A stretch of DNA of 64,000 nucleotides from assembly GCA_951406725.2 (NCBI GenBank), contig OX597825.1, positions 83,824,001 through 83,888,000 of the forward strand, in the 5' to 3' direction. The translations under genes and the position numbers were made by a program. Every line of letters begins with the position of its first letter. Positions within the stretch are counted from its first letter, which is position 1. The notes under the pieces were generated by a model, which was not told the origin of the DNA, did not search any database, and saw nothing but the letters and a program-made list of their open reading frames with translations. Source of the stretch: Octopus vulgaris (Eukaryota). Positions 1,926 through 58,245 of this stretch are shown in pieces.

Positions 1926-2420
<495 letters not shown>

Positions 2421-2438
2421 GTCACATAGACATATATA

Positions 2439-2489
<51 letters not shown>

Positions 2490-2499
2490 AACATAGATT

Positions 2500-3462
2500 C
2501 ATGGTGACCACTGAAAAACTGAAGGATTTGAAAAAATCATAACTTGTTCATTTTCCATCTTTTTTTTATTTTCTTTTTTCTTTGGCATGTTATAGAGCAT
2601 CCCTTGCAGATTAAAATGGCTATTTATGATGTCCAGCAATGAATAAAACTGATTGAGTGTTTCTATTCAAGTAAAAGATGAATTCTTTAAAACCAGATAA
2701 AATACCGGTAAGCGATAACATGATTCGAAACCTAATCGCCCAGTTTGAAAGAACTGGATCAGTCAGCGATCTTCCGGGAACAGGTCCTAACCGCACTGTC
2801 CGCACAGACGCAGCGGTGGAAGCTGTACGGCAGAATGTCATTGAAGGCGGTCAGCTGACGGAAACGTTAGCACACCGGGCGAAATGCTAAGTGGTATTTC
2901 GTCTGCCACTACGTTCTGAGTTCAAATTCTGCCGAGGTCGACTTTGCCTTTCATCCTTTCAGGGTCGATTAAGTAAGTACCAGTTACGCACTGGGGTCGA
3001 TATAATCCACTTAATCCGTTTGTATGTCCTTGTTTGTCCTCTCTGTGTTTAGCCACTTGTGGGTAGTAAAGAAATAGGTATTTCGGCTGCCGTTACGTTC
3101 TGAGTTCAAATTCCGCCGAGGTCGACTTTGCCTTTAATCCTTTCGGGGTCAATAATTTAAGTGCCAGTTACACACTGGGGTCGATATAATCGACTTAATC
3201 CGTTTGTCTGTCCTTGTGTGTCCCCTCTATGTTTAGCCCTTTCGTGGGCAATCAAGAAATAAGAATGGCCTTGAGGATCCATCAGCTTCTACCCGTTGTC
3301 GCTCTGCTCAAATAGGCATCGCCAGAACATCCCTTTAGAACATTCTGAAAGTGAAATTTTAAAATAGTGATAAAAAAGAATGATAAAAACAAAATTTTAA
3401 AACCGTGTGTTTGTAAACGTTATTTTTGCTTTATATCATTCAATCTTTCAGTGGCAACCCTG
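2500..3462 (+). mobile_element. Internally deleted Tc1/mariner element with N-terminal HTH (DUF4817-like) remnant
   Basis: Imperfect ~27-bp TIRs (catggtgaccactgaaaaactgaagga at 2500; tcattcaatctttcagtggcaaccctg-TA at 3436-3464). Peptide IRNLIAQFERTGSVSDLPGTGPNRTVRT..VRQNVIE continues after the SINE as EDPSASTRCRSAQIGIARTSL*NILK. Confidence 0.85.
2845..3261 (+). mobile_element. tRNA-derived SINE family A with duplicated 3' body, inserted in the mariner remnant
   Basis: B-box-like gagttcaaattc; central gcctttcatcctttcggggtcgat..aagtaccag (Meta/Sauria-SINE-like domain); ~13-bp TSD agaatgtcattga (2832) / agaatggccttga (3262). Confidence 0.9.
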
Positions 3463-3742
3463 TATTAAGAATCAAATGAAGAAAAGCGCTTTGGGAATTT
3501 TATCATAGATAAAAGAAAGAGTATTGATATTTTTATCAAGGTAAGCTGCCGAGTTCAATTGCGTAAATAGCCGATTTAGCTTAAATCGCCTTTTTTTAGC
3601 GAATGAAACCGGCAGCGTGTTTGATAAAAACTAAAATACGTTTTCTCCTGTTATTCATAACAAAGTTCTCAAACTATTTTCTGCTATTTGCTATTTTTTT
3701 TATTATAACCTTACTCGTAGAAATCCTCTTAATCTTTCCAAT

Positions 3743-3779
<37 letters not shown>

Positions 3780-4108
3780 GTGAAGGCGCGTAGCTTAGTG
3801 GTTATGGCATTCGGCTCACGATTGTAAGTTCGTGAGATCGATTCCCGGCGACACGTTGTGTCCTTGAGCAAGATACTTTATTTCACATTGCTCCAGTCCA
3901 CTCAGCTCAGCTGGCAGAAATGAGTTGTACCTGTATTTCAAAGGGCCGGCCTTGTCCCACTTTGTGTCACGCTGAATCTCCCTGAGAACTATATTTAGGG
4001 TACACGTGTCAATGGAGTGCTCAACCACTTGCATGTTAATTTCATGAGCAGGTTGTTCCCTTGATCATATCAGCTGGGACCCTCGTCGTTGTAAGCGACG
4101 GAGTGCTC
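3780..4108 (+). mobile_element. tRNA-derived SINE family C
   Basis: A-box tagcttagtgg, B-box-like gatcgattccc, tgtgtccttgagcaagatactt core; 3' tail shared with 36745-37122. Confidence 0.85.
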
Positions 4109-4110
4109 CT

Positions 4111-4198
<88 letters not shown>

Positions 4199-4201
<3 letters not shown>

Positions 4202-4486
4202 ATTAGGGAGTAAATCCAAGCTTACTGGGAAAAATTAGATTTAGGATTAAATCTAATTTTATAGTATAAATATAAATTAATGATTTAAAATTTTTAACAT
4301 TGAATTTTATATTTTATATATTTTGTATATTATATTAATAGATTTTATTTCTATGTTTTGGTTTATGTTTTTCACTGTTTGATTTGCCTAATAGTGGTTT
4401 TATCTCTAATTTATATTTATACGGTAAAATTAATTTTAATCCTAAATCTAATTTTTCCCTGTAAGTTTGGATTTACTCCCTAATAT

Positions 4487-4487
<1 letters not shown>
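4199..4487. repeat. Fold-back element with ~80-bp inverted arms in (TA)n
   Basis: aatattagggagtaaatccaa... / ...ttggatttactccctaatatt; related ends at ~56001-56135 and ~62819-62885. Confidence 0.85.
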
Positions 4488-4527
<40 letters not shown>

Positions 4528-4528
<1 letters not shown>

Positions 4529-4708
4529 CTATATTTAAGAGATGAAGAATTATGTACACTACTTACATTATTTACGTTTGACGGATATTTGTCCTTATCT
4601 TGTTTGTTGCTGACACAACGTTTCGGCTGATATACCCTCCAGTCTTCATCAAGTGTCTTGGGGGAAATTTCGAACCTGGATTCTCATTCCTAAGGTATTT
4701 TTCGATGC
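4528..4708 (-). mobile_element. Penelope-like pseudo-LTR fragment (inverted partner at 5224-5375)
   Basis: Inverted match to 5224-5375; contains a minimal hammerhead. Confidence 0.7.
4612..4657 (-). ncRNA. Minimal type I hammerhead ribozyme (degenerate, C3U)
   Basis: GACAC-UUGAUGA-A-GACUGG-AGGGUAUA-UCAGCC-GAAA-CG-UU-GUGUC; palindromic ACGU stem III. Confidence 0.7.
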
Positions 4709-4785
4709 TGTTATTATTATTGTTGTTGTTGTATTTGTTATTATCATTATTATAGTTTTTATTATCATTATTATTATTATTATTC

Positions 4786-5122
4786 AGTAGTTTTATTTTT
4801 ATAGAGTGCTTTCACTTCACTACCGAGCGCAGCTCTGTGTGCCTTGGGTATGTGCTGTGATTTGTTGTAATGCTCTGATGGTTATTGTATGGAAAGTGTT
4901 CTGCGTAGGATGTGTGCAGTGCCTAGTATTGCAATTTTCTGTATGTCATATGTGTTTGTAAGTCCTGGTGTTTTTGTTATGTATTTGTCTGAATATTTTT
5001 TTATCATGCCTAATGCACCTACTATGATAGGAATTGTTTCTGTTTTCAGGTTCCACATTCTAGTTACCTCTATTTCCAGGTCTTTGTATTTTGAGAGTTT
5101 CTCCATTTCTTTTAGAGACACG
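4786..5122 (-). mobile_element. 5'-truncated R4/Dong-clade non-LTR retrotransposon 3' end (restriction-like endonuclease C-terminus plus 3' UTR)
   Basis: KEMEKLSKYKDLEIEVTRMWNLKTETIPIIVGALG..IQKIAILGTAHILRRTL; flanked by (TTA)n on both sides. Confidence 0.85.
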
Positions 5123-5199
<77 letters not shown>

Positions 5200-5273
5200 G
5201 TTATTATTTCTCTTATTACAATAACATCGAAAAATACCTTAGGAATGTGAACCCAGGTTCGAAATTTCCCCAA

Positions 5274-5317
5274 GGCACCTGATCAAGGCAGGAGGGTATA
5301 TCAGCCGAAATGTTGTT
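5274..5317 (+). ncRNA. Minimal hammerhead, degenerate inverted copy of 4612-4657
   Basis: GGCAC-CUGAUCA-A-GGCAGG-AGGGUAUA-UCAGCC-GAAA-UG-UU. Confidence 0.55.
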
Positions 5318-5432
5318 AATACAACAAACAAGATGACAAATATTCTTCAAATGTAAATAATGTAAATAATGTGTGTAAATACATATATATATATATATGA
5401 ATTTGGGAGACGGAAACTGAAAGAAGCCCATC

Positions 5433-5462
<30 letters not shown>

Positions 5463-5466
<4 letters not shown>

Positions 5467-5620
5467 GATGGGCTTCTTTCAGTTTCCGTCTCCCAAATTC
5501 ACTTTCAAGACATTGGTCAGCCTGAAGCCATAGTAGATGACACTTGCCCAAGGTGTCCCGCAATGGGACTGAACCCGGAACCATGTAGTTGGGAAGCAAG
5601 CTTCTTACTACGGTGCCACG
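5463..5620 (-). mobile_element. SINE family B 5' half
   Basis: Matches head of 63535-63700. Confidence 0.8.
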
Positions 5621-5651
5621 TCTGATAAAGAAATAAGCTATGAACTTTATT

Positions 5652-5712
5652 AGCTGACAGCTGTTTCTGCTTTTTGAATGCTTCTGTATCACTCTACAGC
5701 TTCACCGGAGCT
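5652..5712 (-). ncRNA. Degenerate hammerhead-like motif
   Basis: AGCU-CCGGUGA-A-GCU...AGC-A-GAAA-CAGCUG-UC-AGCU. Confidence 0.45.
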
Positions 5713-5764
5713 TCAGAAATGTAGTGCAATTTTATTTAGAAAAGCGATTGCTTATATATATATA

Positions 5765-5904
5765 GTTTTTTCTGTGTCCCTTTCTGTAGAAGAGCGTAGG
5801 CTCGAAACATAAAAGACTTTTTCTATTCCTGAGCGTTATACTAATACATCTGTTTGTTTTGTACACCACATGTCTTCCTCTTCTGTTTTTGTTCGTAAAC
5901 GCTC

Positions 5905-5908
<4 letters not shown>
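5765..5908 (+). mobile_element. Short (TA)n-embedded PLE-like non-autonomous element with CUGUNGA hammerhead (5780-5815)
   Basis: Same family at 13329-13500, 27185-27330, 38228-38430, 52223-52433. Confidence 0.7.
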
Positions 5909-5974
<66 letters not shown>

Positions 5975-7073
5975 CAAAAGAAATAAGCATAAACGTATGT
6001 AGGAAATGCAGTCAGGAGTTTGATGTGTGGAAATAGATAGGTATAGGAAGAACCTGTATGAAAAGATTTAAAAAAAGAAAACTTGTAAAAATATTTATAG
6101 CGAAAGAAGATGGATTAAATGTAACAGAACCCACGACAATTTAAGAAAGAGCAAAGAAAAGGGAGAAAGAAATAAAAGTGAACCAGAAAGCGTTTATGAG
6201 CATCAATAAGGTTTTTACTAGTGAAGGAATCCAACCAGATTGTCAATGTGTAATTACCAAGGTGCGAGGCGGGATATACTCTGGAGACATGTTATAGATA
6301 ACTGTGTGTGCAGCTGTGATATGTGTATGAAGAGAATGAAGGGAGATAATCACACAGCATTATGCCGACTCACTGTGGGTGTATCTCTGCTATGATACAC
6401 AAGAGGTGACATTGATTTAATGCTACTCCAGTAGCATAAACCGAGTTTAATAATGTCTCGATAATTCTAAACTCTCTTGGAATTTGCTACTGGATTTTTC
6501 CTTCTTTCCTTAAGAAATGCTATTGAAGTCTTGCATTATCTGTATTTGTACCAGTTCTGCGCCAAAGAGATCCTATCTTCTTTGCAATAGAATCTGTCTT
6601 CTGGAAATGTAAAAACCCGTCATCTTTTGGTATGCAAAGAAATAGAGATTTTTTGCTTTGGAGCAAGTTGTTCCTCGTGCGAAAATAATTTGGATTTTAT
6701 CCACATCAGCACACGATTTCTTTTTTTCTTTTCTTTCTTTTTTAACGCATATCTAACACAAACAACGGGCATAACTTTATCTTTCAACCCACGTTCTAAT
6801 TAGAGACTTTTAGACGCTGTTTTTTAACATGAAAAAAAATATCACATACTTCCATCGAAAACTATATTTCTTCACATTTAAAAATCTCTTTTCAAAAGTG
6901 TTTATCGTGAAGGAACAATATTTCGCCGAAGTTGACTTTGTCTTTCATTCACTTGGGGTTGATAAAGTAAGTGACAGTTGAGCAGTGGGGTCGATCTAAT
7001 CGACTTATCCCCTTTCCCAGTGAACTTGCTGGCTTTTTGCCAAAATTTCAAGCCACTATTAAGAAAGAATTCT

Positions 7074-7290
7074 AAGGCAGCGAACTGGTAGGACCGTTAT
7101 TGCAGCGGGCAAAATGCTTAGCGGCATTTCGTCTGTCTTCACATTCTGAGTTCAAATTCCGCCGAGATCGACTTTGCTTTTTATCCTTTTGGGGTTGATA
7201 AAATAAGTACCAGTTGAGTACTGGTGTCGATGTAATCGACCTACATCTCCCTCAACATTGCTGGCATTGAGTCAAAATTTGAAACCATTA
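7074..7290 (+). mobile_element. SINE family A
   Basis: Family consensus match. Confidence 0.85.
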
Positions 7291-7313
7291 CTGTTGTTAT
7301 TATCACCATCTTC

Positions 7314-7527
7314 AAGGCGGCGATCTGGCAGAATCGTTAGCACGCTGGACGGAATGCTCAACAGTGTTTCGCCTGTCGCTACGTTGAGTTCAAATTCCGC
7401 CGAAGTCGACTTTGCCATTCATCCTTTCGGAATACGTAAAATAAGTACCAGTAAAATACTGGGTCGAAGTAATAGACTAGTCCCCTCCCCAACAATTTCA
7501 GACCTTGCGGCTATAGTAGAGAAGATT
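7314..7527 (+). mobile_element. SINE family A
   Basis: Family consensus match. Confidence 0.85.
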
Positions 7528-7546
7528 ATTATCACGATCATCGTTG

Positions 7547-7602
<56 letters not shown>

Positions 7603-7603
7603 G

Positions 7604-8191
7604 AGTGAAAGAGCAGTGCATGCCATCAATGTGACACTGGGGTAAAATATACGAAGCCCAGTATACCCATCAGGACTACCCGTCTGATAAAGGTACACCA
7701 GGCAAATGCATCACAACCATATGTGCACGACATGGTGATCTCATAACAAGATAAACAGCACATGACCTTGCGGGTGGGGCCCAGTTAGAATTTTCTTCTG
7801 GTTGGGTAACCCATCCCACTCAAAAGGTCCTTGATTTAGGGTTGTTTAAGGATGTTGAATGAAATACCCATGTTCCCAGGGGTGAATCATTCAAACCCAA
7901 AAGAATCCCTCTCAACACATGGCTATGATGCTCCCCCACTACTTCTACTCGTGATCAGAGATGCACATATCGTCAGCCACTAAGGGACATGCTCAACTGT
8001 TTAAGGTCAAACAACTGACAAGCAAATCTGTGGTATTGAGCAGAATATTTGCTGTAGCCCATCTTTTATACCAAGACAAAACAATGTACATGATAACACT
8101 ACCAATCAGTTAAGATCAGAAGCCATGAGAGCCACTGCCTGGTACTAGACAAAACAATGTACATGATAACACTTCCAGTCAGTTAAGATCA
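7604..8191 (-). mobile_element. ~550-bp non-coding interspersed element inserted in (TAA)n (probable Dong/R4-mobilised non-autonomous element)
   Basis: Second copy at 21425-21952; flanked by TAA repeats; internal ~45-bp duplication 8074-8119/8147-8191. Confidence 0.7.
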
Positions 8192-8212
8192 TTTTTATTA
8201 ATATTAATAATA

Positions 8213-8287
<75 letters not shown>

Positions 8288-8852
8288 CATTATGGCGGCG
8301 AGCTAGCAGAGTTGTTAGCTCACCAAATGAAATGTTTATCGGGATTTCTTCCGTCCTTACGTTTTGGGTAGTTTTACAGTATTTGTCGCTGTTCCTCACG
8401 TTTTGAACTTAAATCCCGCTAAGACCAATTTAGGCTTTCAGCCTTTCCGGTTCGATAAATTAAATACCGGTCAAGTACTGGGATTAGTGGTATCCGTTAA
8501 TTCCATCCTCTCAAAATTGCTGGCCTTCTGCCAAACTTTGAAATCGCTCTTATCGAATAGCTCAAGACTATTCTATCAAGAAGTTCCTATACGCTTAGTT
8601 CTTATGTTTTGTGAATTAGCAGAGATATTGGTCTTGAAGAATATGGCGGGTAAGTTAGGAGATGAAAAACGATTTTTATCATACTTGAGACTGTGGACTA
8701 AAAGAATAAATATCCATCCGAATGCTGTATGTATCATGACCTAGTGGTCAAGGTTGCACTCACGAACGCCAAACCGTGGATTCGATTCCCAGACGAGGCA
8801 GCTTTTCGTATTCTGGAATAAAACATTTCGTTTCACAATACGCTACTGCTGT

Positions 8853-9170
8853 AAGGCGGCGAGCGGGAAGAATCGTTAATACGCCGGGTTAAATGCTTAG
8901 TAGTATTTCGTCTACCTCTACATTCTGAGTTCAAATTCTGCCGAGGTCGACTTTGCCTTTCATCCTTTCGGGGTCGATAAATTAAGTACCAGTTACGCAG
9001 TGGGGTCGATAAATTAAGTACCAGTTACGCAGTGGGGTCGATTTAATCGACTTAATCCCTTTGTCTGTCCTTATTTGTCCCCTCTGTGTTTAGCCCCTTG
9101 TGGGTAGTAAAGAAATAAGTATTTCGTCTACCGCTACATTCTGTGTTCAAATTCCGCCGAGGTCGACTTT
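8853..9170 (+). mobile_element. SINE family A with internal tandem duplications
   Basis: 32-bp duplication at ~8970-9040; body restarts at ~9119. Confidence 0.88.
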
Positions 9171-9424
9171 GACACAAACATGATAAAAGGATGTTTGTGT
9201 CGTATTAAGCGCTTTCGCTATTTTCAGCTTTTCAAACACTCGGCGAGAAGTAATTAGCGCCACACGATATCGTTCTCAATTAAGGTTTGTCTCACTCTCC
9301 TTTTTTTAAGAATATTTTTTAGCATTAATACCTTTAATTTAATACAATCTTCCCTCACAAAATACTTATAAAATGCGTCGCCTTTTATCCAACTTCAGAC
9401 ATTATCTCGCTGTAACATAATCCC

Positions 9425-9617
9425 ATATTCTATTGGCGCTGAGGTTTTGATCGATTACATCGAATCCCGGTACTGCACCGGTACTTATTTTATCGACCCC
9501 GAAATGTTGCAAGGTGAAATTGATCTCGGTGGGATTTGAACTCAGAACGTAAGGACTGGAGAATTGCCACCAAGCATTTTGTCCGGTGTGCTTATGGATT
9601 GGCCAGCTCACCGCTTT
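9425..9617 (-). mobile_element. SINE family A (diverged)
   Basis: Reverse complement match. Confidence 0.75.
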
Positions 9618-10530
9618 AGCTCTCTGTAACGTAATGCAGTAAAATGTTTTTCTCGGTGATCTGTAGTGATTCAGAATCCAATTGCACTCGGACCATCCAA
9701 TAATAAGTTACGAACAACCACAATGTTGAAACGTACGCAGGGAACAAACATAATCTTGCGATCATTGTAATTTGTGCTATGTACCTATATGCGTGTATGT
9801 GTGTGTAAGTGTTTATTATTCGTGTGTATGTGCGAGTGTGCGAGTGTGTGTGTATGTCTGTGTTTGCATATATAATATGTAATATAGATCTATATGTGTG
9901 AGTAGATTAGTGATAAATTAAAGAATAGATGTTTATATATTTTATAAATAACCACAAGTATAGGATTCAAAGGACCAATATTTGAATGAAAATATAATTG
10001 AATTTTTAATGTTAGAAAATATGCGCAGTGTTGAAAGTACTGCAACGCCTTAGGGCCTCAAACGGCGTATCAGAATCGCGAAATGCATCGGAATTCCGAC
10101 AAATAAATTTCTTTCTTTTACACTCCAATAAATTTCATTATATACTATTCGCCATTCATTTCGCTATTAAAGGCTTTACAAACTTACGCATTTGCTTGTT
10201 TGATATTTTTTCTCGTGTATTTTTTTTTTGTCTTCTTCCTATCCTCTTTCTCTTTCCCTCCTTCTCCCCTCCTCTTCCTCCTCCTCCACGTTGTCATCGT
10301 CGTCGTCGTCGTCGTCGTCATTCTTAGTCTAACATGCAAAGCAATACAATGCAGAAACATACGCACACACACACACACATATATATTTATATTTATTTAT
10401 AAATGTATATATATGTGTATAGCACACACACATACACACATTGACACACACACACATATATATATATATGCATACATATATATATGTGTGTGTGTAGGCA
10501 TATTACACATATATGAGTGTGTAGATGTGC

Positions 10531-10576
<46 letters not shown>

Positions 10577-10723
10577 GTGTGTATATATATGTATATATAT
10601 ATATATATGTATATACATGTGTGTATAAATATATATGTGTGTATATATATATATATATGTGTGTGTGTGTATATATATATGTATATATATGCGTGTATAT
10701 ATATGTGTTTATATATATATATA

Positions 10724-10831
<108 letters not shown>

Positions 10832-11695
10832 TCTGTGTGTGTGTCTGTATCTGTGTTAGAAGATCTACATCCTTTATTGAATTAAGGTCGTTTTAAATTT
10901 AAGATAGCGAAAAATCCTTCCGGTGTATACAAATATTTCGAATCAATAATAAAAAAAATAAACAACACGCAAAAAGCAAAAGAAATAATGATGCAATTTT
11001 TCTTCTTTAAATTTCAATTATAGAATGAAATTTATAAATGAAATTGAAAAGTTTCCCCATATAAACTTTATTTCTAATCACTGTACTTTTAATCACCTAA
11101 ATGTAAATCTGTACTTGATTAAAACTAAAAAAAAAAATAATAATAATAATAACACGGTCTCAGGCTGTTAAAATCGGCCTTCGTAACGGACTGAAAACGT
11201 TACTAATAGCAACGAAAGAGCTTTGACTAAATCATACAACTAAACAAAACAATTGGCTTACCCTAATTAAATATTCTCAATGACATGAGGTACTCGTCCA
11301 GCCATGGTTTCGTTGTCCTTTTTCCTCTAATATTTACGTGGTAAAACGGAAGACTACTACGGATCCCTGGCTCCAGCCTCAGCTGTGAACTTGGAACTTA
11401 ACGGACGACCAATCATAGCACTTACACGTCTAGATCACCAGTGAACTAAACCCCTAATATTCTTTATATATGGAGAAGGCGAAGCAGGGGCAGCTGAAGA
11501 AGGGGAATAATCCTTGTGTTGTATGTCTTGTACTCTGCTTTTTCGTTGTTTGAAAAAAGTCTGTTTCCATGGTTTTGATTTTATGTGTTCGTTTCTCATT
11601 TTGTTCGACGTTTTTTTGGTGTCCTGTACCCATATATGCATGTATATATACATATAGATGTATGTAATATGCATATTTTTTATTTATTATTTTGT

Positions 11696-11742
<47 letters not shown>

Positions 11743-11745
<3 letters not shown>

Positions 11746-12137
11746 GCGCAGGAGTGGCTGTGTGGTTATGGTTCCGGGTTCAATCCCACTGTGTGGCACC
11801 TTGGGCAAGTGTCTTCTACTATGGCCTCGGGCCGACCAAAGCCTTGTGAGTGTATTTGGTAGACGGAAACTGAAAGAAGCCCGTCGTATATATGTATATT
11901 TATATGCGTGTGTGTGTTTGTGTGTCTGTATTTGTCCCCCTAGCATTGCTTGACAACCGATGCTGGTGTGTTTATGTACCCGTTACTTAGCGGTTCAGCA
12001 AAAAGAGACCGATAAAATGAGTACTGGGCTTACAAAAGAATAAGTCCCGGGGTCGAGTTGCTCGATTAAAGGCGGTGCTCCAACATGGCCGCAGTCAAAT
12101 GACTGAAACAAGTAAAAGAGTAAAAGAGTAAAAGAGT
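11743..12137 (+). mobile_element. Full-length tRNA-derived SINE family B with internal TA/TG microsatellite and (GTAAAAGA)n tail
   Basis: tggctgtgtgg A-box, ggttcaatccc B-box, ccttgggcaagt core. Confidence 0.9.
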
Positions 12138-13328
12138 ATACATACATAGACGGAGTTTTACACAAATTCTATCTATCAAGTTAACTCACAGAGCATTGGC
12201 TTGCTCATGATGCCGTGCAGTAACACTGAATGCGTTACGTGTTTACGACGCGAACCACTGAACCACACAACCACGTGTATGGTGCAGATAAATCCCGCTT
12301 TTAAATCGTCGAACTAACAGTGTTAAATTAAACGTATTAGACATATTATAAACTGGAGCAAATTGAAACTTCGTAACTACCAGCTTTAAAACACGAGTAC
12401 AACATATTCCTTTTTTCCTCGAGTATCCGCTAAAGTTTGTTTTGATGATAGCTACGATGAGACTTGTCATATTCTTGTGAAGATTTCTAAGAGAACCTAT
12501 AAGAGAAAAGAATTTCTAAGCTGTTTGTTCTGTTTCAGCTCCTTAACAGTTCTCACAACGGTTTTTCATTCGTATGACACTAGTAAAATAAAATATTTAT
12601 TTCCAAATATACATTTCTCCAATATAAGAATCCTTCTCTATCTTTTTTCACACAAACATTCAATGTAACAGATACGTAGTTTCTTTCGAAAACAGTTTTC
12701 ACTTTCATATTAGCAAAGTAGATAAATAAAAAAGATTTTGACATCTCAGATTTGGTTCAAACAACAGATTATATTCTATAAGGAAATCTTTTCGAATCTT
12801 TGAATGTTGATTATAAATTTTATTTTGTATCAGTACAACACGTCTTTGTAAATGGCTGTCTATGTATATATTACATAAACATATGATTCTGAGCTACAAT
12901 GCAAATACGATGCGTTCACACATTTACACATACAAGCATACACATATACACACACAGATATATATATATATATGTATGTATACACACACACACACATAAA
13001 CATATACACATACTTTAATGCACACACACACACACACAGGATATATATTTCCACCTCGGCATCCGAAACTCGGAGTTTTATCTTGGCTACCGAATAATTG
13101 TCACATATTACATTTACAGATAAATTCCTCTCTTTACATAATATCGAGGTCTCTTTCATTCTTTTGTTGTCTTACCGTTTTTATCAATATATATATATGC
13201 GTGTATGTATTGAATTTTCCATGTTAATAGTAAACATAGGATAATTCATTCACCCATCAAAATATATATATGTATATATACACTTATATATGTATATATA
13301 TATACACATATATATATATATATATATA

Positions 13329-13499
13329 GGGAGAATTCACAAAAAAATAAAAGACGAAGACAGGTGATGTAGATGCATTAGTATAACGCTGGAGAAGTGA
13401 AAAAGTCTAACGTTTCGAGCCTACGCTCTTCCACAGAAAGGAAGACAGAAAGAAACAAGTAGAGAAAATAAAGAATGTGTAGTGGCTAGCGATCTATCG

Positions 13500-13500
<1 letters not shown>
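13329..13500 (-). mobile_element. PLE-like short element with CUGUGGA hammerhead (13405-13440)
   Basis: CUUU-CUGUGGA-A-GAGC-GUAG-GCUC-GAAA-CG-UU. Confidence 0.7.
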
Positions 13501-13555
<55 letters not shown>

Positions 13556-13593
13556 TATACGTATACATATGCATATATGTACGTATATATATG

Positions 13594-13648
<55 letters not shown>

Positions 13649-13981
13649 AGAGGCAAAATTGTAGATTTGGTAGAAATCATGTAAGAAATTACTTCTTTGA
13701 GATTCTTCAGACAGAGAATCAAATAATGTTATTATGCTACTACATGTATAATTTCGTAACACCTATTAGCAAATGAAACACGCGTAATGGTGATTTGGAA
13801 AAAACATAAGCTTACCAATTTTCCGATTTGATATTATTACTTAGCAAAACGTCTGACCCGTTGTTTTGAACTCTTATGCATGCCGCTCATAAATATAGCA
13901 TCTACATAGAGATTTGGAAAACAGAAATAAGGAGATGTGTTTCGAAAGGACACCGCTTAGATTTTAACTCTGTCTACAAAA

Positions 13982-14148
<167 letters not shown>

Positions 14149-15261
14149 TGAGAAATTATGATAAACACAATTAACCACAACTGATCGTCAGGGGAACACT
14201 TTATTGTATTATGTTACTGAGATCAAATATCTGAAGCTGAACAGATGGCGAGACATTTTTTTATTTGTTTATTTGTCTGTTGAGTAAAACCCAGCAAGTG
14301 TAAGGTCATGACCAACTCATACCATTATATTCTTGTATATTTGTGCTTATATTTATTTTTCCAATATCCATCCGTCTGTTTCACTGAATGTATTAAAAGA
14401 CTGACCATTACAAGACACTCCCTTTTTTCATTGTCTCTGTCATTCTACTCCCTCCTCTCCTCTCTTTTATTTTACATATTTCCTTTTCATTTCTCTCTCT
14501 CGCTTTGCTTTTTTTTTATATATATCTCATTATCTCTATGATATATTTATTTATTTATTTTTCACTTATATACACTACTTTTTTAGGTTTTTTCTCCTTT
14601 CTTTTTTAATGACAGTCGTAATTGTTTCATTCTTTTTCTCTCTTTCTCTTTCCCTTTCCCTAGTTTTTCCCTCTATCTTTCCAAGCCATTTGCTTTTTTT
14701 TTTATCTAATTCGCTCTCATAATACTTATATAGTGTCTTGCCATCTACCCAACTTCAAACATTTGAACTCTGTAACATAATGTAATGAAGTACTCCCCTG
14801 ACGATGCCCTGTGGTTAGGCATCCAATTGCACACTGAACATTCAATGCAGAGGTTTCAAGCAACAAGAATTGTCATACGCGCCGAGGAAACAAATAATAT
14901 AAACTTGCTTCTATCGCAATTTCTTTATTATGTATATGAACGTGGTTACAGCATAAATGACAGTACACCCGAAACAGCTGTCAAGATCAGACTATTACAT
15001 AACCCCTTTCATTTCATGTAAACACGCATTAATCCTACATGTTTATCTGCTTTTTCTTTTCAATACCGGCACGATGAGGAACGTTCTTATAGCTAACTTT
15101 CCATGGCTGGGGCACCCGTCCTGGAATAAACGGGATTTAAACTCTCTTCTATCCGACCACTATTCCAACGATGTCCACACCACGCTTGTTTCCCTTCTCC
15201 TACACATTACATAGATATATATACATACATATATGAGCGTGCGTGTACGTATGTATGTTAG

Positions 15262-15326
<65 letters not shown>

Positions 15327-15735
15327 GTGTGTGTGGTTAAACAGGTAGGTTATGAAAGTAGGTTACTTGATAACTATAATCAGATAATTCTTAGAAAACT
15401 TAAATTTGTCTTCGAGAAATATTTCCTTATGATAACATTCCAGATTATTGACATTTATTAGTGAAAAACCTACCCAAAATAAGAGGCTTATTTCAATGTT
15501 TATCATCATCATCATCATCATCTTCATCGCCAGCAGTATCATTATCCTTAACATCAACATGACAATCATATTTCTACTTTTACTAATCTATCTTCTTCTT
15601 CTTCTTCTTCTTCTTCTTCTTCTTCTTCTTCTTCTTCTTCTTCTTCTTCTTCTTCTTCTTCTTCTTCTTCTTCTTCTTCAGAATAATCATCATTACCCGC
15701 ATCATCGTCGTCGCCGTCGTCGTCTTTGTCGTCAC

Positions 15736-15768
<33 letters not shown>

Positions 15769-15869
15769 TATTATGATTACTATTGCATCATGAATAATCT
15801 CAAATTTATACTGCTTTGTGCGTTCGAAACTTTCCCTTGTCCACAGTCAGCACACTGAAGTGACACTTG

Positions 15870-16200
15870 TTCAGTGACCATGCTTCAAGACCCCTATGGA
15901 GTACTCTTGCTCTTCCAGGCAATGAGGATATTTTGTGCGTGTTTACATTCGTTCTAGTCTTTTTGAGCCTTGCTGGTAGTCGAGTCCTGATACTTCCAAG
16001 TGCACCAGTCACTATTCGAATCACATCTGCTTTCTTCATTGCCCACAACCTGCGTATTTCCCGCTCCAATTCGTCTTAGCTGTGCAGTTTTATCGTTCTT
16101 TTCTTCGATCCTGCTGTCACCAGGACAGGCTATGTAAATTATCGTTCGTTTTGTTTCTGTACACTACAATAATGTCAGGTTTCCGATGTTTAAACTGATT
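15870..16200 (-). mobile_element. Degenerate R4/Dong-like restriction-like endonuclease fragment
   Basis: RKPDIIVV...IACPGDSRIEEKER / ELEREIRRLWAMKKADVIRIVTGALG with frameshifts. Confidence 0.75.
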
Positions 16201-16291
16201 GTCTCACACTGAAGCATTGCCTTCAACAGGGTTTTGCAATCCAACCCTCATTTTCAGTAAGTCTTGGGATTTGCTCTTTGGAGGCCATGGT

Positions 16292-16355
<64 letters not shown>

Positions 16356-16484
16356 TAATAATAATAATAATAGCCTGTTGTCTCTTGAGCTCTCTGGGTG
16401 AGACTTGGAGCCAACTTGTACAAATATAAAGCAAAAGTCAAACATAGAATAATAATAATAATGATGATGATAATGATAATAATG

Positions 16485-16606
<122 letters not shown>

Positions 16607-17595
16607 AAAAGCTGGGAGCTCGAAGTATCCTCAAAATGTCGGAGAAAATGCTTAGCAGCATTTCTTCGGGGTTTTTTTACTTTAAGATTTCAAATTCCGC
16701 TGAGGTCGACTTTGACTTTGCCTTCAGCTTATCTAGATCGATAAAATAAGTACCAGTTGAGCTCTGGGGTTGATGATAATCGACTTACCCACTTCTGCGA
16801 AATTGCTGGCCTTGTGCCTAAATTTAAAACTATTATTATTGATGTTGTTGTTGCTGTTATTATTATTATCTTAAGTTTTGTTGGTAGTGATGATTATCAT
16901 GATGACGATGTTCTTGTAATCCTCATCATCATCATCATCATCATCATCAACATCATCATCTTAATTATTAAATCTTTTTTTTTTACATCATTACCGTTAC
17001 CGAATTTTGAACGAATAAAAACGAAACTTTAAAATACCTTTTATCTCATTAAATATATATTTTCTGTACGGTTACCCATTCTCTTGCCGCCCAGAAGCTC
17101 TCTTTTGTCTTAAAGCTTATAAAGTAATTTAGATACTTCAAAACGATTTTTCGTTGTCGTTTTTAAATGATTACTTGATATTATGTGAAGTTTATGAGGT
17201 GAACACTTTGGCATCTTTTCAACAACTTGTCACGAGCATTAGACAGTTCATCCTAACAAGATATTTCGTAATAGCTATCTATATCTCTTTAAACCTACAA
17301 ACAGGTTATCGTATTTCATTTCCCTTTCAAAATCTTCAACAATTCTCTGATACGTAGTCTATAGTTTTTACAACCACTAAGACTAGCAAGCCAGAATATT
17401 TCTCGCTGTTTCAGTCCCGACTGTGAAATTTTCCTTACAATATTAACGTCTAAATAAAGATTATATTATTTCGAAGAATGTTGTAGTTCGCTTGAAGATT
17501 TGTAGTAAAGGAATTGAATATTGAGTGAATACAGAATGGTGAAAGCTGCTAACAATGCAGAATTTTTTTTCTTTTAATATTATATTTCAAAATAT

Positions 17596-17760
17596 AGGCG
17601 CGGAGTGGCTGTGTGGTAAGTAGCTTGCTTACCAACCATATGGTTCCGAGTTCATTCCCACTGCGTGACACCTTGGGCGAAACTCTTCTATTATAGCCTC
17701 AGGCCGACCAAAGCTTTGTGAGTAGATTTGGTAGACGGAAACTGAAAAGAAGCCTATCGT
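17596..17760 (+). mobile_element. SINE family B 5' half, followed by expanded (TG/TTTG)n to ~18005
   Basis: Consensus match. Confidence 0.85.
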
Positions 17761-17766
17761 AATATC

Positions 17767-17803
<37 letters not shown>

Positions 17804-18079
17804 TTGTGTGTTTGTGTGTGTTTGTGTGTTTGTGTGTGTTTGTGTGTTTGTGTGTGTTTGTGTGTGTTTGTGTGTATGTGTGTGTGTGTTTGTGTGTTTG
17901 TGTGTTTCTGTGTGTGTGTTTGTGTGTGTGTGTGTGTGCGTGTGTGTTTGTGTTATTGTGTGTGTGTGTATGTGTGTTTCTGTGTGTTTGTGAGTGTGTG
18001 TGTGGGGGGGGGGGGGTTAGGTGTGGGTGTGTTCTAAGGCTTAGTCAAAGAAAAGGATCCTGTCCAGTTTTTTTCACCG

Positions 18080-18345
18080 ACCTCCGACACCAGTGACATC
18101 AATGAATATCTGTAACTCGACGTCGTCTACATGCAAATACGCTGGCGAGGTGGGCATGTCAGAAGGTCATCGTAGTTCGGAGGAAGGTTTAAAAGAAGAA
18201 TCTTGTGCGGGGCTTGGAAAGTGAAAAGCGGTACGGGTTACAAGAGGAGACAGAACGGCTTTTCCTTTTGTTAGTTGGCCTTTAGCTGATGGGGCATACA
18301 CGCCAAATAGTAATTTCAGATGAGCAGCAGCCATTGTAATTATGA
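18080..18345 (-). mobile_element. Possible old CR1/L2 LINE 3' fragment
   Basis: NYNGCCSSEI resembles the YYxGxCSSEL motif of L2/CR1 ORF2 ends; heavily decayed. Confidence 0.35.
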
Positions 18346-19512
18346 TCTAACGATGAAATGATAAAACGAGATGGAAACCAAAATTTGAATTCAATACGAT
18401 TAAAACATTCTTTTGATCATTTGTATAAATAACGAAATTTAATTTATTTCAAAATTAAACTATTTTAAAGTTTTCTTTTATTCTTTTCGTTCCCATTTTC
18501 TTTCTTCTCGGTTCAGACTTGACCATGATGAAAATCCAAATGAAAAAAATAAATGGAATCCGAGTGAGATTTTTTAATTAAATAGAAAGCTAAAATTATG
18601 TAAATTTTGGGATTCCAGTTTTGGTAAGACATGAAAATTAAACCACGGTGTACTTCGAAATCTCACGTCTTCGTTTCAATCTCAAACAAACACCAGAGAG
18701 AGAGAGAGAAAGAGAACGTATGAGAGAAAAAGAGAGAGAGAAAAAGATAGAGAGAAAAAGAGAGAGGGAGGGAGAGAGAAGAGGTTTAATGTGTTTTTCG
18801 AAAAAATTTTAATCAAGCTTCATGGTATTCCATCTCACGCTACTTTACGAACCAGACGCAAGAGAAACGTGAACAAAAATGTAATGTAAAAATGATAGGC
18901 TTTTAACATCCATTCTTCCTTCTGGCAACAACGAAATTTATTTTTTGATTAAATGTCGTATTTTCCAATACTTTTGCGCGCGCGTGTGTGTCTATGTGTA
19001 TGCGATGTTTCCTTCGTATTTTTTTATAGAAAAAAAACACAAAATTAAGCATTTCTATTTAACACATTCGTTCTAGAAAAGTAGGCTTTGATAAAGGGAA
19101 AAGCATGAAAGAAAAAGGTGGCAAATATTTTAAATTAATCTCTTTTTTAAAATTATTTTATAATCTATGTGTTTTTAAAAAAAAAAAAACATCAGATTTA
19201 TTTGCTGCATTTTTTCCAATGCTATTTGCAGCTGCACAAGAATTCTGAAGAAATATGGAAACCTAATTCTATCTAATTACGACGCCCCGTTTGATCATGT
19301 AATGGTTATGTTAAATGCAATGACTTCGTAAGAAAAATTCGCTATTTGCTGCAATACATATTATATTATAATTTTACAGTGTAACGTATCCAGGAAATTT
19401 AATTGAGTATGTCAACTTCAGCAGTGACTATATTTTACTCCATATATAGAGAGAAAGAGAACTCCATGTGTCCCAGCATGGCAGCAGTCCAATGACAGAA
19501 ACAAAGGTATAT

Positions 19513-19548
<36 letters not shown>

Positions 19549-19631
19549 GTGTGTTAATAAATAAATATATACATATAGTCTTGGACTATTTTTCCTCCTC
19601 TACGGACTTTTTCTCTTTCCTCCTTCTGATA

Positions 19632-19865
19632 TAAGGCGGCGAGCTGGCAGAATCTTTAGCGCACCGGGCAAAATGCTTAGCGGCATCTCATCGGCCTTCA
19701 CGTTTCTGAGTTCAGATTCCACCGAGGTTGACTTTGCCTTTCATCCTTTCGGGGTCGATTAAATAAGTACGAGTTACGCACTGGGGTCGATATAATCGAC
19801 TTAATCCCTTTGTCTGTCCTTGTTTGTCACCTCTATGCTTAACACCCTGTGGGCAATAAAGAGAT
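19632..19865 (+). mobile_element. SINE family A
   Basis: Consensus match. Confidence 0.88.
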
Positions 19866-20961
19866 TAATATAATGTCAACATTACTTGAATGTATTTCAG
19901 ACAAATCCGTTCTTTCGTCTGGAATACCCATTTCTTGCAAGCCACTAACGCGAACTTTGATATCGTTAAGCAATCTCTGTAATTGCTTGACATACAGAGA
20001 TTTATAGTGTGAAGTTCAGAGTCAGGAAGGTAAACTGCACCAACACGCGTCTTTCTACATTAAAATATGAATACTGAGCATCTGATAAGGGCGAGATTCA
20101 AATGATGACCTCTATGCAAGATACAAGAATGCCGTGATCTTCCGCAAGTGTTTGTCAACAACACTTGTCGAATATATATACGCAAAATATATCATACCTG
20201 GCAGTAATACACTAATCATCAGGTTATATATTATTCAGAAATGATACAATGTTGATATAAAGCGCAATAAGGTGACGAAAACAATTACCTTTTGACATGA
20301 TATTACCACCCTTGAAATAAGTTTCAATTATCTTTATTAATAATTAGTTAACCTTTGGTTTCTGTAGTAAATCTTCGAGCAAAAAGTATTTCGTTTCTTA
20401 CTGCTGATTATCAGCTAAAAACGTTTGGCTTCAACAACTGTCTGAATAACCCGTGGCATCCAGGAAACCAGCATGTAATATTGTTTGGGCTTGATGGAAG
20501 CTCAGGCATCAAGAAATTACGATGCATAATATCAATTAATTAATTAATTAATGAGAAAACAAATTGAGCTACAAAAACTCCTTCATTGGCTTACAGCTGT
20601 TTTCGCTACAAGGTATCGCACGAACACTGAACTCTAATTTATTATAGCAGAAACAGCTCTGAGCGAAAGGAAATGATTGCATAACGCTTGTTTTTTTGTC
20701 ATTTATGAATTGATAAATATGTGTGTGAATCGTTTTGATTATGTTGGTATGCATGACTGAGTGTATATATGTATCTACACATACGTTTATGTGAGTGTCT
20801 GTATGTGCGGATGTGTTCATTTGCATTTCTTCATAAAAGTAGATCAAGTATTTAGAAGCACCCCGCCTCCTTAATACCGTCTAATTCTACCATCCTTAGT
20901 ACGCTAATGGCAGATATTAATTAAATCTTGCTATTCTTCTCCAGATAACCTTTTCTTCGAA

Positions 20962-21081
<120 letters not shown>

Positions 21082-23386: not shown

Positions 23387-23442
<56 letters not shown>

Positions 23443-23447
23443 GATAT

Positions 23448-23665
23448 CAACAGTTAAAAAATGCGGACGACCTAAATGTGGTACATGGCCATACCAAACT
23501 GAAGGCTCGGAATTCACATTCCAGCAAGGAGAAAAATTTTCAATTAAGACCAACTTCGTTGTGCTCCCGAAACCTAATTTATGTCCTAACCTGCTCAGTT
23601 TGTGGCCACAATTATGTGGGCCAAACCAGCCTTACTTTGAGACGCAGAGTTACGATGCATAAAGA
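23448..23665 (+). mobile_element. Penelope-like (Neptune-type) Cys-linker plus GIY-YIG endonuclease fragment
   Basis: KKCGRPKCGTW..F..KTNF / frameshift / SRNLIYVLTCSVCGHNYVGQTSLTLRRRVTMHK. Confidence 0.85.
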
Positions 23666-24364
23666 TTGGTTTTCCTCAATTCAGGCAGATAGCTCTGAGC
23701 GAACATACACACTTATATACATATACATATATATATATATATATACATAAATTCATGTATGTATATACTTATAAAGAAAAACACAGATGTGATTCAGAAT
23801 TTACAATAGGTGCTTCGGCAACATTTTGTTGACTATATATTGGGATTACATCATGGCAAAAACCCATCGTCAGGCAAATTTTTGACATATAAACAGGTAA
23901 GAAGAAATAGGTGACTATGCATGTATGTATAGATATGTCTATGTACATGTATATATGTATGTGCGTGTGTATGTATGTACGTACGTATGTATGCATGAAT
24001 GTACGTACGTATATATGTATGTATATATCTATCTATCTGCCTATCTATGTAAATATGCATTTGTGTATAGGTCGGACGCAGGCCAATAATAGAATCCTCC
24101 GCACGCGGTTGAGCGGCTTGCTTGAATTTGATGCCAAATTTTCATCAAATCAACCATTAATATCTTTAAGAAATACAAGGGCATATTGGATTTTGTAACT
24201 ATAAAACAAGATGGGCACGGTAGAAACGCTTTTAATCACATATTTACTGAATGACAATCAGCCTAGGGTTAAAAAACATAGAGATATCTGGCACGCAGAT
24301 ATAACTGCTCAGATCAACAAAAAAAAAGAAAGACAATGAAAGGAAAAGTGATGCATATCAACTC

Positions 24365-45354: not shown

Positions 45355-45401
<47 letters not shown>

Positions 45402-45521
45402 ACAATCAAGGAACGGCCATAATAGGCCATTCACCCACTAGAAATAACAGCCAAAAGCTTTAACCGCAAAATAACATTAATTCCGTAAACCAGGAGAAAA
45501 TTGAAAAACATTTACCCTGTA

Positions 45522-45628
45522 ATTTCTTAGACGATGCACCGTTTCATCTACCGTTTAATGGTAAACTAACCTGATTAAATTAAATCAAGCCAATCCACCA
45601 TAGGCCCTTAGACTCATCAGTAAGAAAT
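45522..45628 (-). ncRNA. Intact type I hammerhead ribozyme
   Basis: AUUUCUUA-CUGAUGA-GUCUA...UAGAU-GAAA-CGGUGCAUCG-UC^UAAGAAAU; 8-bp stem I; cleavage between 45530 and 45529. Confidence 0.92.
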
Positions 45629-46014
45629 AGCCAAGTCGGAACAGATATTTTTCACGAGGCATTCCTCTTGCTACCTCGGCAATATCTGACCTAAAATTGT
45701 CAAATCGTCGCACTCGCGCCAAATTTATCGGCAGCAAATAAATATAAGCCACTGATTCCATTACGGAACTAACCAGAAAATTCATAATTAATCAATATAG
45801 GGTGGCAAAAAAAATTTTGTAGAATTCTTTTGCCACCAGCGGCCTAGTGGGAAAAAAATTAAATAGTCATAAACCATTTTTAAGTTCAACATCAACAATC
45901 AAGGAACGGCCATAATAGGCCATTCACCCACTAGAAATAACAGCCAAAAGCCTTAACCGCAAAATAACATTAATTCCGTAAACCAGGAGAAAATTGAAAA
46001 ACATTTACCCTGTA

Positions 46015-46121
46015 ATTTCTTAGACGATGTACCGTTTCATCTACCGTTTAATGGTAAACTAACCTGATTAAATTAAATCAAGCCAATCCACCATAGGCCC
46101 TTAGACTCATCAGTAAGAAAT
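46015..46121 (-). ncRNA. Intact type I hammerhead ribozyme (second copy)
   Basis: As above with loop III UACA; cleavage between 46023 and 46022. Confidence 0.92.
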
Positions 46122-46283
46122 AGCCAAGTCGGAACAGATATTTTTCACGAGGCATTCCTCTTGCTACCTCGGCAATATCTGACCTAAAATTTTCAAATCG
46201 TCGCACTCGCGCCAAATTTATCGGCAGCAAATAAATATAAGCCACTGATTCCATTACGGAACTAACCAGAAAATTCATAATTC

Positions 46284-46340
<57 letters not shown>

Positions 46341-57371: not shown

Positions 57372-57714
57372 CGAGATATATGAATGCGTGGATGTGGTTG
57401 TGTTATTAGTCTATAGGTGTGTGTGTGTGACTGTGTGTGTGCATGTATGTGAGTGTATAGATGTTCTCATTTATCTGTGTGGGTACATGAGTGTGGGTGT
57501 GTTTGGGTGTGCAAATGCACCTAGTGTGTGTGTGTGTGTGAGTGCACGTACTTGTGTGTTCATGTGTTTATCCAAGTATATGGAGACGGAATTAGGGGCG
57601 AAATTACGGGATGCATAAAGTTGTGGGGTTCAGTCTGCGGGGGCATTGGTGCGTTGGAACTCTGCCCTTGGTTGTGGTTCTAGAGAGCAGCCGATTTTAA
57701 GGTGCAACGTCTGA

Positions 57715-58245
57715 GTTGTCGGCAGCCAGTGGTTCACAAAGAGAGAATACAACTGGTGGCAGCAATGGGAAAGTTCATATTTCCGGTTGATAGATACTGC
57801 AGGTTGATGGAGGATGTGCAGACGTTTATGCAGGCAAAGATGGCAACTGCGGCTGTTGGGTGAATAGGATAGCGCCTTGCCGACAATGGTCTATTTGATG
57901 CTAGATATTTCATTCCAGAGGTCAGGGAGGCTCCAGAGGGAGTGAAAGAAAGATGTGGAATTCGCTTTACCTCTGCATCTGAGCGAATGCACGTGCTGTG
58001 TGTATCTTCCCTTGAAATACTTGACTGTCATGCTCGTTTAGTGCCTTGTGATGCAAACAGATGGCGTGAGGGTGACTCTGTAGACCACAGACCTTGAGAA
58101 GCAGGACTCTCCTAGAGAGCATCTAGTAGGATTTCTGGAGTTACAGGATGGGGTTGGAGGTTGTGCAGATGCATGTTTGCGACTGTTGTAGTGTGCAAAA
58201 TTAGAAGTTATGTTACTTAAGCAGGAATAACTCACTTTGACGTTA
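57715..58245 (-). mobile_element. Penelope-like (Naiad-like) GIY-YIG endonuclease pseudogene
   Basis: SYSCLSNI..CNSRNPTRCSLGESCFSRSVVY..FKGRYTQHVHS..ANST..IVGKALSYSPNSRSCHLCL..INRKYELSHCCH. Confidence 0.8.

Follow-up and report, generated by a model that had tools for sequence, protein, structure and literature searches.

A dispersed hammerhead-bearing 493-nt element of Octopus vulgaris with Penelope-like insertion ends

The stretch of Octopus vulgaris DNA analysed here (the window; 64,000 nucleotides of contig OX597825.1) contains a short tandem repeat in which each copy carries a hammerhead ribozyme motif. The locus raises the question of whether this repeat is an animal retrozyme and, if so, which enzymes inserted it and from what form of RNA. 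Animal retrozymes are a known class and their dependence on Penelope-like elements (PLEs) has already been proposed, with support from co-occurrence and from homology to pseudo-LTRs (pLTRs) in the sections cited of PMC7229834, PMC7761336 and bioRxiv 10.64898/2026.07.22.740005. The same sections treat as open which enzymes move these elements and whether circles or cut RNAs are the templates. No description of an octopus or cephalopod retrozyme, of this family or of the ends of retrozyme insertions was found in a partial coverage of the literature, Repbase and Dfam aside.

The tandem unit and its hammerheads

The initial annotation reported a 493-bp unit repeated 1.8 times with about three differences between (TA)n tracts, and the period scan agreed: positions 45398-45789 matched 45891-46282 at period 493 with exactly three mismatches over 392 bp (45459/45952, 45537/46030 and 45699/46192), and periods 492 and 494 gave about 280 mismatches each. 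Positions within the unit are given as q, counted from the predicted hammerhead cut site along the hammerhead strand. The whole insertion (45398-46282, minus strand) is a single-arm, 5′-truncated family copy composed of q234-493, q1-493 and q1-132, and includes one complete 493-nt monomer bounded by two predicted cut sites (45530-46022, minus strand). A (TA)21 target microsatellite adjoins the 3′ side of the element (45358-45399), and a 4-nt filler followed by (TA)25 adjoins its 5′ side (46283-46336, the (TA)n itself at 46287-46336). No stop-to-stop frame of at least 80 codons lies wholly within the unit and no tRNA was found in it; the G + C content of the 2-kb bin containing it is 0.365. The circular fold of the monomer was predicted at −146.5 kcal/mol with 65% of positions paired, against −112.3 ± 6.1 kcal/mol for 40 shuffles (z −5.6), and the opposite strand gave −88.2 kcal/mol. 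Elsewhere in the window, a 20-bp tandem repeat occupies positions 7-1151 (57 copies, 91% matches).

Scanning both strands of the entire window for type I hammerheads gave three matches: the two complete minus-strand motifs already claimed (8-bp stem I, CUGAUGA, GAAA and a GUC triplet) and a weak chance match in a GAA repeat. Hammerhead 1 (46015-46121, minus strand) comprises stem I at 46121-46114/46022-46015, CUGAUGA at 46113-46107, stem II at 46106-46102/46043-46039 and GAAA at 46038-46035, with the predicted cut after C46023; its loop III is UACA, a palindrome broken by the change at 46030. Hammerhead 2 (45522-45628, minus strand) has the same layout, with CUGAUGA at 45620, the predicted cut after C45530 and a self-complementary stem-loop III with loop UGCA. 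In both, stem I has 8 bp, stem II 5 bp and stem III 4 pairs. The predicted cut sites lie 493 nt apart, so that cleavage at 46023/46022 and 45530/45529 would release one monomer, as first proposed. In the Rfam search suggested at that stage, both motifs matched the full Hammerhead_1 model (RF00163, model positions 1-45) at 22 bits (E 0.015), below its gathering score of 34 bits, and Rfam at gathering thresholds gave no match in the window. The low score is probably caused by the long stem II insert, which carries a 19-bp hairpin (46051-46094, minus strand; second copy 45558-45601) absent from the initial annotation. The hammerhead region folded at z −3.5 to −4.0 against 200 shuffles, with the active fold 3.9 kcal/mol above the minimum (−30.3 versus −34.2).

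Conservation of the motif was assessed on 11 multi-copy or subfamily variants together with 8 copies of a sister family with 70% identity. The core was invariant, with variation at N7 only, and the triplet was GUC or GUA. In 95.5% of cells the stems paired, compared with 40-46% in slid controls, and both sides had changed in 7 of 13 pairs; these double changes count as few events, because most of them separate the two families. These alignments indicate that the ribozyme is under selection.

All multi-copy variants tested had a self-complementary stem-loop III, with UGCA or UAUA as the loop. Its predicted stability was only −0.2 kcal/mol as a hairpin and −17.5 kcal/mol as a homoduplex (0 to −1.0 and −13.6 to −18.7 across the multi-copy variants), and cleavage is therefore likely to be dimeric, as described for axolotl motifs in the cited part of PMC7229834. 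The changed loop III of the upstream window copy (UACA) weakens the predicted homoduplex to −7.1 kcal/mol, so the window locus itself may cut poorly.

The genome (2.8 Gb, 227 contigs) was searched for relatives. The best 40 of 1148 candidates gave 229 matches on many contigs; the best listed copies were 97-99% identical and other subfamilies about 89-95% identical. The full unit in the window differs by 3 substitutions from its nearest sampled relatives. An exact 17-nt hammerhead word of the window's subfamily occurred 439 times in the genome. One variant of the 3′ end designated A below, joined to (TA)n, matched 256 times, and end B joined to (TA)n matched 812 times, with no match for either reversed control; there are therefore at least 812 insertions. 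On these sequence comparisons the family appears dispersed, young and recently spread, which agrees with the recent activity proposed initially.

An older sister family that looks retrozyme-like was also observed (L132:1337-2077; L165-L174). It is about 70% identical, has a unit of about 420-465 bp and 2670 candidates, and carries a type I hammerhead of its own; its fixed ends are analogous, and it too targets (TA)n. A further 70%-identical variant (L215:2133-2586) has a hammerhead that keeps the UGCA loop III and an A-site end in (TA)n.

With consecutive type I hammerheads, no coding frame, a G + C content below 50%, a dispersed distribution and a self-paired monomer, the family would, by every testable genomic criterion, be a genuine animal non-LTR retrozyme. 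A target-site duplication of more than 4 bp, when present, is a further retrozyme criterion; such duplications are unreadable here because the targets are (TA)n.

Insertion ends and Penelope-like elements

In the window copy, the 3′ end joined to (TA)n, end A, lies at q128-133 (45398-45420, minus strand). A second site, B (q~239; 45784-45800, minus strand), is internal in this copy and forms a second fixed 3′ end in most family members. A and B lie 132 and 239 nt downstream of the cut, and the distance between them, the tail, is 107 nt. We infer that end A is the first reverse-transcription start site.

The ends of 128 loci were mapped in three samples: the 40 best matches, 48 loci picked by their A end and 40 picked by their B end. 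Before counting, arms shorter than 30 nt, arms ending at neither A nor B and arms cut by the locus edge were excluded, as were columns next to homopolymers, the complex loci L102 and L137 (from hazard and variant counts) and L035 (from the variant count). End A fell at about q126-142, mostly q128-133, and end B at q234-243, and nearly all ends ran into (TA)n. The 3′ ends of the insertions are not at the ribozyme cut, but at two fixed internal sites. Head-to-head inversions whose outward 3′ ends were one A and one B made up 82 of the 128 loci; A+A was found once (L114) and B+B never, 10 loci had one odd end, and 35 were single-armed or unclear. Locus L215 was not counted as A+B, its second arm being an unrelated 70% element; that arm is still among the 27 A arms of the B-end sample.

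Insertions of PLEs show an inverted truncated partner copy and a one-sided tail of 30-40 bp (10.1101/2021.04.23.441226; PMC3846280, sections cited), and a PLE protein was found to nick and extend both strands, the tail being the gap between two internal reverse-transcription starts (PMC11167929, section cited). The insertions of the present family show PLE-type ends, with an inverted 5′-truncated partner and a tail at one end only. In several single-arm copies, namely the window copy (46277-46282), L046, L059, L069, L097, L115 and L190, the 5′ end lies at q221-242, adjoining the AT-rich B site, which suggests joining to the (TA)n target by microhomology.

Intact PLEs are present in the genome, with RVT_1 and GIY-YIG ORFs of 753 aa and, in many copies, 781 aa. 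Their linker carries the C-x4-C-x2-C motif that is assigned to the Neptune and Nematis clades (10.1101/2021.04.23.441226, section cited). These elements follow the same two-end rule in (TA)n with tails of 33-43 nt: all 4 two-armed loci of family P1 paired a short end with a long one, the tail being about 43 nt, and family P2 had a short end and an end about 33 nt longer, with one of each in the two-armed locus L153. By our own reading of the motif, P1 and P2 carry minimal hammerhead-like motifs in which U3-A8 would replace C3-G8. Young intact PLEs at L125, L126, L127 and L145-L155 include copies up to 99% identical and have a palindromic stem III (ACCGGT, ACATGT); the 3′ UTR of P2 contains tandem CCAAT/TGACG-like repeats.

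The initial annotation had also placed two endonuclease relics of the mobilising machinery in the window, at 23448 and 57715. The first is a frameshifted PLE fragment covering the Zn-linker and GIY-YIG region (23450-23666, plus strand), which lies between (TA)n tracts, is 72% identical at the amino acid level to intact P1 and is not part of the element; the second found no support from Pfam or from tblastn with 5 PLE proteins. The machinery must come from the intact PLEs elsewhere in the genome rather than from these relics. The second relic, on the minus strand at 57590-58000, belongs to an old repeat family (65-76% identity, 96 candidates). The sequence TATATACACG precedes the insert at the 5′ junctions of both the PLE relic (23440-23450) and the element (46283-46290), possibly by chance.

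The proposal of a non-autonomous element mobilised by PLEs is thus upheld by the inverted ends with a one-sided tail and the lack of coding continuation at the mapped loci. We consider it probable that the family is an animal non-LTR retrozyme inserted in (TA)n with PLE-type ends, and that intact PLEs of the same genome supply the reverse transcriptase and endonuclease that copy it in trans. Against this explanation, no sequence-matched partner PLE was found among those compared, and the 107-nt tail is 2-3 times as long as any PLE tail, whether from this genome or from the literature (30-40 bp). As young intact PLEs exist in the same genome, the partnership is open to an in vitro test.

RNA templates and the proposed cycle

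The 5′ ends of the arms bear on the template. In the two separately chosen samples, 35 of 125 first passes stopped within q1-40 (6.5% expected): 21 of 71 in the A-end sample (5.6% expected) and 14 of 54 in the B-end sample (7.9% expected). In the A-end sample the peak was present in both A arms (11/43) and B arms (10/28), despite their different distances to q1-40. Stops in other q bins amounted to 0-10%. Both arms stopped in q1-40 in 14 of 60 A+B pairs (9/34 and 5/26), and crossing of the cut site was correlated between arms (p 3e-4 and 5e-4); arm-level p-values are overstated, because the arms of one insertion are not independent. Exact starts at q1 were seen in both arms of L062 and in L106 and L195. 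Most stops were 5-36 nt past the cut rather than on it, and some were blurred by AT-rich filler. The sample of 40 best matches, which is biased to full units, was left out of this pooled test; 1 of its 61 first passes stopped there. The simplest reading is that about a quarter of the insertions were copied from RNA with its 5′ end at the cut. At L103, L106, L110, L121 and L122 the filler in the inversion junctions consists of reiterated (T/A) runs similar to q16-33, which suggests that slippage recurred at the template 5′ end.

Published results weigh against copying from cut RNA: Anolis PLE hammerhead mutants inserted normally with no reads ending at the cut site (PMC11167929, section cited), and of 9 Xenopus retrozyme dimers just 1 showed cleavage in vitro (bioRxiv 10.64898/2026.07.22.740005, section cited). 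Later-pass stops were also somewhat raised here (8/54, p 0.02; first versus later passes p 0.09), a pattern in favour of partly cut multimers or a local pause in addition to circles.

The units within insertions were then compared (155 units, 61 loci). On average, two units differed by 1.9 substitutions if they lay in the same arm, by 0.9 if they lay in opposite arms and by 14.5 (median 8) if they came from different insertions. Among 28 inverted insertions there were 82 singleton variants, 7 variants shared by units of one arm and 1 shared across arms. In 8 of 44 insertions every covering unit carried a variant that no other sampled insertion had; such variants are private with respect to the 88 insertions sampled, out of at least 812. 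The 254 cut-site junctions that were read are without exception precise, which argues against sloppy template jumping. The single haplotype of each insertion speaks for one monomer that was multimerised anew, in keeping with the rolling-circle model (PMC7229834; PMC7761336, sections cited); on these haplotypes the insertions would fit a circular or re-read monomer template, and transcripts of fresh uniform arrays would give a similar pattern. Internal initiation of reverse transcription removes the need for an RNA 3′ end and would thus permit a circular template. Locus L035 (G000:C10:17475022-17483859) comprises 18 units in direct orientation, with variants that recur among them, and looks like a mini-satellite that grew out of one insertion; these recurring variants and the 7 shared within arms indicate that DNA-level expansion also acts.

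Public sequencing runs were also considered; none of those containing the sequence is on record as RNA. Fourteen runs from 4 studies, only guessed to be RNA, contain 35-56% of the unit words, and the contigs of 4 of these runs cover 29 of 29 unit bins, which is no more than suggestive. Summed depth over the unit was about 2,000-21,000 in run X1 versus 17-440 in three others; these depths are not taken to show expression. This depth in X1, about 100-fold above the other runs, could reflect a total-RNA library rich in unit RNA, or DNA.

These data suggest the following cycle. Tandem copies would be transcribed on the hammerhead strand, and the hammerheads would cut, probably as dimers via the self-complementary stem III, to leave linear RNAs with a 5′ end at the cut site, a step to which the 5′-end pile-up points; some cut RNAs may then be ligated into 493-nt circles. 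A PLE protein would nick both (TA)n strands and start reverse transcription internally, 132 and 239 nt past the cut; this chemistry is taken from the Anolis PLE in vitro, and the two fixed ends are observed here. On cut linear RNA both cDNAs would stop near the cut site and yield short palindromic inserts, and on an endless template, either a circle or an uncut multimer, both would run on for up to several units. The two cDNAs would join head-to-head by microhomology or short filler, a structure that is observed, and some arrays may later grow by unequal exchange.

A more specific form of this cycle is plausible, although we give it somewhat less than an even chance. The element would be a standalone circular-RNA parasite that mimics, and is not descended from, current PLE termini: the PLE protein would reverse-transcribe the 493-nt circle in rolling-circle fashion from two internal sites 107 nt apart, a dimer-only hammerhead would cut multimers and spare the monomer circle, and the short palindromic copies would record cleavage in vivo in the germ line. 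If true, the insertions would prove the retrozyme cycle directly from the genome, and they would be the first evidence that RNA cut by a hammerhead serves as a PLE template.

It is somewhat unlikely that PLE mobilisation proceeds with no circle at all, from linear multimeric array transcripts, both cut and uncut, with arrays growing at the DNA level. The raised later-pass stops and the recurring variants of L035 fit such a scheme, precise junctions are equally compatible with uncut multimers, and unprocessed RNA was the main substrate for one PLE (PMC11167929, section cited). However, copying of old arrays should pass unit-specific variants to both arms, which occurred in one case against the 82 singletons; in 6 insertions, variants are fixed throughout both arms, which requires a bottleneck of one unit; and arrays cannot become longer if copying truncates them at the 5′ end, although as many as 8 full units are present in inverted copies.

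It is more doubtful still that the pile-up reflects a transcription start, or a pause of reverse transcription at the folded hammerhead, with the ribozyme motif being structural and without self-cleavage. The position of most stops, past the cut in the region of stem I and a small hairpin, would suit this, and PLE pLTRs carry promoters (PMC11167929, PMC3846280, sections cited). Against it, no peak is seen at the far stronger hairpins of q176-222 and stem II, the upstream edge of the pile-up is sharp at q1 with several arms starting exactly there, and the catalytic core and NUH triplet are kept between families 70% apart.

Relation to known elements

The proposed copying in trans leaves the relation of the unit to PLE termini to be considered. 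The initial annotation had held that the element would be a pseudo-LTR if all genomic copies were termini of a coding PLE; at none of the 128 loci does the element continue into a PLE ORF. By tblastn, PLE sequence lay near one locus in the set of 88 and near two in the set of 40 (L051, L209 and L217), always outside the element. The neighbouring endonuclease fragment of L209, read by eye, is a separate palindromic PLE insertion; the 69-71% match beside a PLE ORF in L132 is a separate sister mini-element insertion, split from the PLE by (TA)n; and the non-unit continuation of L035, considered as a possible ORF, is a simple-repeat flank. By BLAST the 493-nt unit had no similarity to 32 PLE loci including UTRs (about 5-6 families; thousands of candidates exist), and folding of the post-cut regions of the unit, the sister family, P1 and P2 gave no clear common structure.

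It is therefore very improbable that the copies are solo or tandem pseudo-LTRs of an unsampled coding PLE family, produced by 5′ truncation. The family matches none of the PLE termini sampled. In Xenopus, matches to known TEs were reported for 24 of 57 retrozyme families, and almost all of these TEs were PLE termini (bioRxiv 10.64898/2026.07.22.740005, section cited), a precedent that speaks for such an origin, as does the small share of PLE candidates compared; but the unit has a canonical hammerhead, unlike the minimal U3-A8 variants of the PLEs in this genome. Derivation from an ancient pLTR, as the cited section of the same report proposes for Xenopus retrozymes, is compatible with copying of a retrozyme in trans by intact PLEs. 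It is scarcely credible that the family is a satellite propagated by DNA recombination or extrachromosomal DNA circles alone and that its hammerhead-like motif is incidental: the 18-unit array of L035 does behave like a small satellite, but the A+B end rule contradicts this reading, as do the strand specificity of the fixed 3′ ends, the varying extent of 5′ truncation, the preference for (TA)n targets and the compensatory ribozyme changes.

Like the animal non-LTR retrozymes of coral, mussel and axolotl (PMC7229834) and of vertebrates (bioRxiv 10.64898/2026.07.22.740005), as described in the sections cited, the family has a non-coding AT-rich tandem unit with one type I hammerhead each, a highly self-paired monomer, and coexists with PLEs. 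Its palindromic loop III resembles that of the axolotl HHR_Amex1 motif (PMC7229834, section cited). The unit of 493 nt exceeds the 150-450 nt given in PMC7229834 but lies inside the 51-972 nt of bioRxiv 10.64898/2026.07.22.740005, in the sections cited. Unlike the animal retrozymes described in those sections, it has a long stem II hairpin, mostly dispersed head-to-head inversions and two fixed ends; circular RNA has been demonstrated for described retrozymes (PMC7229834, section cited) and is only proposed for this family. The end structure and 5′-end mapping of retrozyme insertions are not described in the parts cited of the main texts of PMC7229834 and bioRxiv 10.64898/2026.07.22.740005, supplements aside.

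With EN+ PLEs of the Neptune/Nematis type the family shares an inverted 5′-truncated partner, a one-sided tail and (TA)n targeting (10.1101/2021.04.23.441226; PMC3846280; PMC11167929, sections cited), as well as a first 3′ end that lies about 75-130 nt downstream of the hammerhead. It differs from them in having no ORF, a canonical rather than minimal hammerhead and a tail of 107 nt versus 30-45. Many family copies start near the cut site, while none were detected for PAc in the cited section of PMC11167929. Non-autonomous Chlamys PLEs (MRC1, Chlamydomonas) are without a hammerhead and generally share 3′ sequence with an autonomous partner (10.1101/2021.04.23.441226, section cited); the present family, in contrast, has a hammerhead, and no partner was found by sequence. 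The unusual points of the family are therefore its 107-nt tail, its extended stem II and the lack of a sequence-matched partner. The family bears on the role of the hammerhead in the PLE cycle, because hammerheads were dispensable in the only in vitro system. To the proposed link between animal retrozymes and PLEs it adds evidence at the level of individual insertions: the PLE two-start signature, the pile-up of 5′ ends at the cut site and arrays of a single haplotype.
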